Origin: Escherichia coli
GTDB lineage: Bacteria > Pseudomonadota > Gammaproteobacteria > Enterobacterales > Enterobacteriaceae
NCBI RefSeq assembly: GCF_030384885.1
Contig: NZ_CP128613.1
Length of the DNA stretch: 64,000 nt
Direction: 5' to 3' (one strand)
Part shown: positions 20,583-21,155 of the stretch, piece by piece
How positions within the stretch are numbered: the first letter of the stretch is position 1
Layout of the letters: each line of letters opens with the position of its first letter
Program-made: the position numbers and the translations under genes
The notes under the pieces: model-generated
The model's input: only the letters and a program-made list of their open reading frames with translations
What the model was told of the DNA's origin: nothing
The model's database searches: none

Positions 20583-21155
20583 AGGGTGAATTCCTTTTCA
20601 TGATCCCGATACGTTAACTGTTACGGCGTAATCATCCTTTTTATGAATGATTCGAGTGGAAAATATACGCTATATAAATTTATAAGAGACTTTTTCTATT
20701 AATTGTTGTATTAATTGGTAGTGCGAACATGACATTAAATGTCAGACAATTTCAGATTGTAGCCAATAATATTAATCGCGCGGATTTTAATGATCGATGT
20801 CAATCAATGTCAAATGTTTCACCGGATGAAAACACCGACCAGGAGAAATATTAATATTCAGCATGGTGATGTTTTCTTGGGAAGTGTGTGATTCTGAGCG
20901 ATAAATATAAATAATTAATGGCTGTTACAGGCATTAATGTGCATTAATTCATTGTTATCGCTTATATATCACTTTTTTATTCCATACCATAATTTCAGAA
21001 TTTAGCCTGTAATATGCGCTTCAAAGAGCCGGTGAGATGGAAGCAATAGTGATAAGAATGTTAAAGATATCCGATATCTGGTATCAGGCTCCTGCATGTG
21101 CCAGCAGGAGCGAGTAAATCGTGAGAGGCTGTGATTACAGCGGTGAGACAGGTAC

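Follow-up and report, generated by a model that had tools for sequence, protein, structure and literature searches.

What does the AT-rich spacer upstream of an E. coli lipoprotein-adhesin gene pair encode, a binding site for a dimeric regulator or a promoter of a more ordinary kind? An earlier note on the window (the whole stretch of DNA analysed here, 64 kb) had proposed the former for positions 20583-21155, on account of a perfect palindrome and repeated ATGTCA motifs. We examined the identity of the operon, the chance level of the motifs, the promoter signals on the gene strand and the conservation of each element among orthologous upstream regions.

The locus and its operon

The genes and the spacer under study are as follows:

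21156-21518, minus strand: yibL, the upstream neighbour
20583-21155, minus strand: yibL-sadB intergenic region, AT-rich, 36% GC, 573 bp
19899-20582, minus strand: sadB-type inner-membrane lipoprotein gene (DUF3251)
14828-19855, minus strand: trimeric autotransporter adhesin gene (UpaG/EhaG/SadA type), 43 bp after sadB

Region 20583-21155 is identical (100%) in strain 2013C-4282 and in ten further complete genomes, and the RefSeq annotation of 2013C-4282 places no feature within it. According to that annotation and the ORF map, the order on the minus strand is mtlA, mtlD, mtlR, ..., yibL, the spacer, the lipoprotein gene and the adhesin gene, followed by lldP; yibT is located between mtlR and yibL on the plus strand. 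The lipoprotein matched the crystal structure of Salmonella SadB (PDB 4C47) at E=3e-70. The adhesin is a 1,675-aa YadA-like protein with ESPR, YadA head, stalk and anchor domains. A SadB-family lipoprotein gene is found directly upstream of a YadA-type trimeric autotransporter gene in the mtl-lld slot, and the SadB structure match together with the ESPR and YadA domains identifies the pair as the sadBA-type operon of Grin et al. (PMC3953254). It was reported previously that the sadBA slot between the mtl and lld operons is conserved, that the native expression conditions are unknown and that sadBA is not detectably expressed in culture in Salmonella (Grin et al., 2014; PMC3953254). The operon is thus already known, and nothing at the locus falls outside known kinds of system. 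In E. coli, the adhesin of this operon goes by the name UpaG or EhaG.

The description of the spacer as the AT-rich upstream or leader region of a lipoprotein-adhesin operon held up: the genes are of the sadBA / upaG-ehaG type, and over several hundred bp the AT content is well above average (36% GC vs. 51% for the whole window). The accompanying statement that there is no regulator gene in the vicinity is, strictly speaking, incorrect, since mtlR (22022-22609), which codes for a regulator, lies ~0.9 kb upstream. No link between MtlR and the sadB promoter was seen.

Salmonella sadBA has the same gene pair in the same order and in the same mtl-lld slot, with an intergenic gap of 43-44 bp (PMC3953254). 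The window lipoprotein and the Salmonella-labelled homologue P0113 share only about 66% identity. Within E. coli, the sadB-TAA locus (window 14828-21155 and loci L002-L020) shows extreme allelic diversity. E. coli-labelled SadB-like proteins span 64% to 100% identity; the six annotated E. coli loci that were compared encode identical YibL proteins (WP_000665680.1). The intergenic allele of the window was found at 97% identity or higher in 28 of 5,426 complete genomes, and about 3,600 genomes gave no megablast match to it. The adhesin measures 1,675 aa in the window (14828-19855) vs. 1,959 aa in 2013C-4282 (L001 1394-7273), a difference that probably reflects variation in the number of stalk repeats.

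Repeated motifs and the predicted sigma-70 promoter

The motifs themselves are present as described. The palindrome TGACAT-TAA-ATGTCA occupies 20730-20744, its symmetry extending further than noted, to a perfect 7-1-7 dyad (TGACATT-A-AATGTCA), and the two additional ATGTCAA copies are found at 20797-20803 and 20807-20813. The hexamer ATGTCA/TGACAT occurs four times in 84 bp vs. 0.54 expected (P=0.0025, first-order Markov simulations of the region), and this is its sole cluster in 64 kb. The hexamer was picked after inspection of the sequence; some hexamer reached four or more copies in 96% of the simulated sequences, and a perfect dyad with 7-nt arms appeared in about 28% of them. Given this post hoc choice and these simulation rates, the motifs are real, yet taken alone they rise only weakly beyond chance.

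The operon is encoded on the minus strand, and ATGTCAA therefore reads TTGACAT in the gene direction. On that strand the following elements were recognised:

20808-20813, minus strand: -35 hexamer TTGACA, a consensus match (the ATGTCAA copy 20807-20813 read on the opposite strand)
20798-20803, minus strand: second TTGACA (the ATGTCAA copy 20797-20803), inside the promoter spacer
20784-20789, minus strand: -10 hexamer TAAAAT, separated from the -35 by an 18-nt spacer
20777, minus strand: predicted transcription start, 7 nt past the -10, placed by promoter match and conservation
20583-20777, minus strand: predicted 5' UTR, ~195 nt
20592-20596: Shine-Dalgarno AAGGA

A consensus promoter scan gave TTGACA-N18-TAAAAT as an 11/12 match on the gene strand. 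Counting both strands, only two sigma-70 matches of this quality occur in 64 kb, and the probability of finding one on the gene strand of the region is 0.027. The other one, ATGACA-N16-TATAAT, starts from 28224 on the plus strand and is embedded in very AT-rich DNA (28200-28650, 23-27% GC). In the upstream region, TTGACA at 20813-20808 would pair with TAAAAT at 20789-20784 over the 18-nt spacer, and from this geometry transcription is expected to start near 20777.

To follow these elements by phylogenetic footprinting across Escherichia, Salmonella and Pseudocitrobacter, 19 orthologous upstream regions were collected via protein homologues and their encoding contigs. The set comprises divergent E. 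coli alleles, other Escherichia (Escherichia sp. E1V33, E. marmotae, E. ruysiae, E. albertii and E. fergusonii), one Salmonella enterica genome and two Pseudocitrobacter species. Exactly one TTGAC[AT]-N17/18-TAnnAT was found on the gene strand in 19/19 regions, located 193-232 nt before the ATG. The spacer length is 18 nt in 18 of the 19 sequences, Salmonella being the exception with 17 nt. TTTGAC and ATTAnnAT are the sole invariant blocks in an alignment whose mean column conservation is about 50-60%. The -10 element varies among orthologues (TAAAAT, TAGAAT, TAGCAT and TAACAT), with T1, A2 and T6, the -10 positions that matter most for sigma-70, always kept. Relative to the canonical TTGACA-N17-TATAAT, the window promoter shares the perfect -35 and, as does every orthologue, these three -10 positions, but its 18-nt spacer is one above the optimum, hence suboptimal, and it carries no extended -10 TG. 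A GC-rich discriminator, CCGCGCG, is confined to the E. coli / Pseudocitrobacter vendiensis clade. The Salmonella sadBA upstream region has TTGACA-N17-TAGCAT, a promoter signature in common with the window; unlike the window, it has neither the palindrome nor the second TTGACA, and the two leaders are barely alignable beyond the promoter hexamers and one distal box.

We concluded that 20808-20813 and 20784-20789 constitute, as predicted from sequence, the promoter of the sadBA / upaG-ehaG operon, an ordinary and deeply conserved promoter of the sigma-70 type. No mapped transcription start for sadB or for any orthologous promoter was found in the searchable literature, and the assignment is therefore a computational one. 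It provides a promoter, backed by phylogenetic footprinting, for an adhesin operon whose native expression conditions have been reported as unknown. The case also illustrates how a consensus -35 hexamer, when read on the wrong strand, can mimic a repeated regulatory motif.

The second TTGACA is carried only by the window, APEC17, L005, L007, E1V33 and the E. marmotae clade. It is replaced by other sequence in Pseudocitrobacter, the metagenome-assembled genome (MAG) L004, E. albertii, Salmonella, E. fergusonii and several E. coli alleles. As an extra -35 it was rejected: it would have no partner -10 at a usable distance, the hexamer at 17 nt being CGCGAT. The same applies to CTGACA at +46, for which direct reading revealed no -10 at 16-18 nt. 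A scan for terminators in the region returned none.

The palindrome and alternative readings of the motifs

The region as a whole is probably a sigma-70 promoter followed by the ~195-nt leader of the sadB-TAA operon, set in AT-rich DNA that H-NS would be expected to silence, with the palindrome as a by-product. Two short elements are needed for the discussion of the alternatives:

20730-20744, unstranded: perfect 7-1-7 palindrome TGACATTAAATGTCA, about +34 to +48 in the predicted 5' UTR, specific to one allele group
20794-20807, unstranded: FNR-like box TTGAT-TGAC-ATCGA (TTGATTGACATCGA), 9/10 match, overlapping the promoter spacer

All members of the window's allele group (5/5 sequences, at least 97% identical) carry the palindrome, vs. 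0/14 other alleles or species. The alleles that lack it have AACA in place of GTCA, the common E. coli alleles reading TGACATTTAATAACA, and in more distant orthologues the corresponding stretch is AT-rich but unrelated. By this comparison the common alleles share the third, clade-restricted TGACAT of the early leader in the form TGACATTTAATAACA, and two adjacent substitutions (AA to GT) next to it made the site symmetrical in the lineage of the window's allele. The palindrome does not recur within the 64-kb window. Relaxed matches to it numbered 5 in the window vs. 3.0 expected, a count reached by 17 of 100 shuffles, so that there is no enrichment. As RNA it would form a hairpin of only 5-6 bp with a 3-nt loop. 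A 41-aa antisense ORF with its start inside the palindrome (20729-20854) was dismissed, since conservation across alleles was seen neither for its frame nor for the ORF itself. These comparisons suggest that the palindrome is probably an allele-specific coincidence.

The proposed binding site for a dimeric regulator, made up of the palindrome and the ATGTCAA copies, thus comes apart into pieces of different kinds: one copy is the -35 hexamer and the other a spacer copy limited to a subclade. What can still be argued is that the palindrome TGACATTAAATGTCA serves as the operator of an unlinked dimeric repressor, which would bind at about +41 and block elongation or open-complex escape, as a lineage-specific rewiring of the operon. 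Its perfect 15-bp dyad symmetry, its retention throughout its allele group and its location early in the transcribed sequence, a place from which roadblock operators can work, are consistent with such a role; moreover, a palindrome specific to one allele group could be functional without being conserved. But divergence within the allele group is at most 2.3%, which makes the retention uninformative, none of the 14 other orthologous promoters, those of the commonest E. coli alleles among them, contains the element, it stands single in 64 kb, and a 7-arm dyad arises by simulation at the rate given above. We know of no E. coli operator consensus that fits it, those of RutR, AcrR, Fur and NsrR failing on spacing or bases. 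We regard an operator here as very unlikely. The three TGACAT copies that lie on one strand (two 10 bp apart at the promoter and one at +46) might alternatively be direct-repeat sites at which, within the E. coli clade, an activator or repressor of the response-regulator type acts. The alleles of the window, APEC17, L005 and E. marmotae retain the full set, and the TGTCA core resembles Pho boxes, but the spacing is 10 bp vs. 11 bp in Pho boxes and distant orthologues keep the -35 copy only. Retention of the copies among related E. coli alleles could reflect function rather than shared ancestry; these alleles are more than 90% identical in the promoter core and share recent ancestry, so the retention does not count as independent evidence. 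A direct-repeat array is, in our estimate, extremely unlikely.

The adjoining ATGTCAA pair creates the FNR-like box, which raises the possibility of a site for the FNR/CRP family through which the operon would respond to oxygen. It matches TTGAT-N4-ATCAA at 9/10 positions. Measured from the conserved promoter, its centre falls at -23.5, where it could repress; if TATTAT (20771-20766) is used, the centre falls at -41.5, where class II activation of an alternative promoter could occur. The latter geometry fits TATTAT as a 5/6 -10 hexamer. In Salmonella, STM3690 (sadB) has been listed as Fnr-regulated in anaerobic assays (PMC3212961). Against this, an equally good match was obtained in about 9% of composition-matched simulations (P about 0.09), and 64 kb contain five such matches, mostly inside genes. 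The box is degraded to 7-8/10 in sister alleles and absent at this position in E. fergusonii, E. albertii, the L015 allele and also Salmonella, the very source of the Fnr report. An FNR-type site accordingly has a slim chance of being correct. A CRP-like sequence, GGTGAAACATTTGACA (8/10), over the -35 and within 20794-20823 was discarded, as it occurs in few alleles only and at chance level. The sigma-70 promoter with its leader remains our preferred reading of the region.

Distal box, probable silencing and the RNA ends

Further upstream, one element matched the promoter hexamers in its degree of conservation among Escherichia, Salmonella and Pseudocitrobacter:

20990-21003, minus strand: conserved distal box AAATTCTGAAATTA, about -215

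Its core, WTCYGAAAA, is kept in 14/14 regions that cover the box, including those of Salmonella and Pseudocitrobacter. The box occurs as a single copy per genome, which rejects a dispersed repeat, and it has been lost together with sadBA in the K-12-type deletion. Few E. coli loci show as much allelic diversity as sadB-TAA, yet the promoter hexamers and this one distal box are constant. Their fixation amid such diversity speaks for natural expression of the operon and for selection on it, in spite of its silence under laboratory conditions.

In the window's allele, the distal box belongs to a 21/25 direct repeat with 20772-20748, just past the start, at a distance of 243 bp (z=6.5). The pairing of distal and proximal boxes is also the best local match in four other lineages, and is not significant in any of them singly. 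A permutation test for concerted evolution of the two boxes gave P=0.06-0.08, which is not significant. Conceivably, the two boxes are paired sites for a looping regulator or a nucleoid-protein bridge that sets the operon on or off, with the palindrome or the FNR-like box adding lineage-specific control; we consider this arrangement unlikely. To our knowledge the distal TCTGAAA box does not correspond to a sigma-E, sigma-32 or sigma-54 element, nor to an IHF, RcsB or ArgR site, all of which were rejected by eye on spacing or for want of a conserved partner element. Between the box and the promoter, Escherichia alleles conserve AAAACAT-N9-TGAATATTAA (20851-20876, minus strand, about -100 to -75), a possible activator or UP-like region.

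Silencing of the promoter by a nucleoid protein, the other part of the earlier proposal, is a reasonable expectation that fits published work on orthologues and in that sense is already known. A passage in PMC5012682, citing Totsika et al. 2012 (AEM 78:2179), places UpaG among the H-NS-repressed autotransporters of UPEC. The window operon is the positional orthologue of upaG/ehaG of UPEC and EHEC, cited as H-NS-repressed in that same passage, and has a likewise AT-rich upstream region; its upstream allele differs in being rare and divergent, about 78% identical to the commonest matching allele. By analogy, the adhesin promoter region of the window is probably silenced by H-NS. Matches to the high-affinity H-NS nucleation motif tCGATAAATT do not exceed what AT-richness predicts (three 8/10 matches, at 20671, 20695 and 20898). 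In an anaerobic Salmonella fur mutant, hns was up 3.1-fold and STM3690 was down 4.2-fold, and STM3690 was reported as Fnr- and Fur-dependent in microarrays (PMC3212961).

We also examined the folding of the RNA at both ends of the spacer. The 208-nt leader folds no better than its shuffles (z=+0.8), which does not support a structured leader, thermometer or riboswitch, and an Rfam scan of 20300-21600 with E up to 1 gave no match. The leader contains an inverted repeat, AATCATTC / GGATGATT (20652-20630, minus strand), about 50-70 nt before the ATG. Escherichia and Pseudocitrobacter conserve its arms while the loop varies between 5 and 9 nt, a pattern that points to a small hairpin in the RNA more than to a site for a protein. 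GGATGATT could instead pair with GGGATCAT, which is nearer to the ribosome-binding site.

At the opposite end, a hairpin follows the yibL stop codon:

21088-21111, minus strand: hairpin GCTCCTGC-N8-GCAGGAGC after the yibL stop, without a U tract

The 101 nt on the 3' side of yibL form a more stable fold than shuffled versions do (z=-2.85), and the hairpin is conserved, with one compensatory change in Pseudocitrobacter. It is a probable 3' end element of yibL. The K-12-type sadBA deletions end right beside this hairpin, leaving 21085-21155 as the only part of the spacer that remains.
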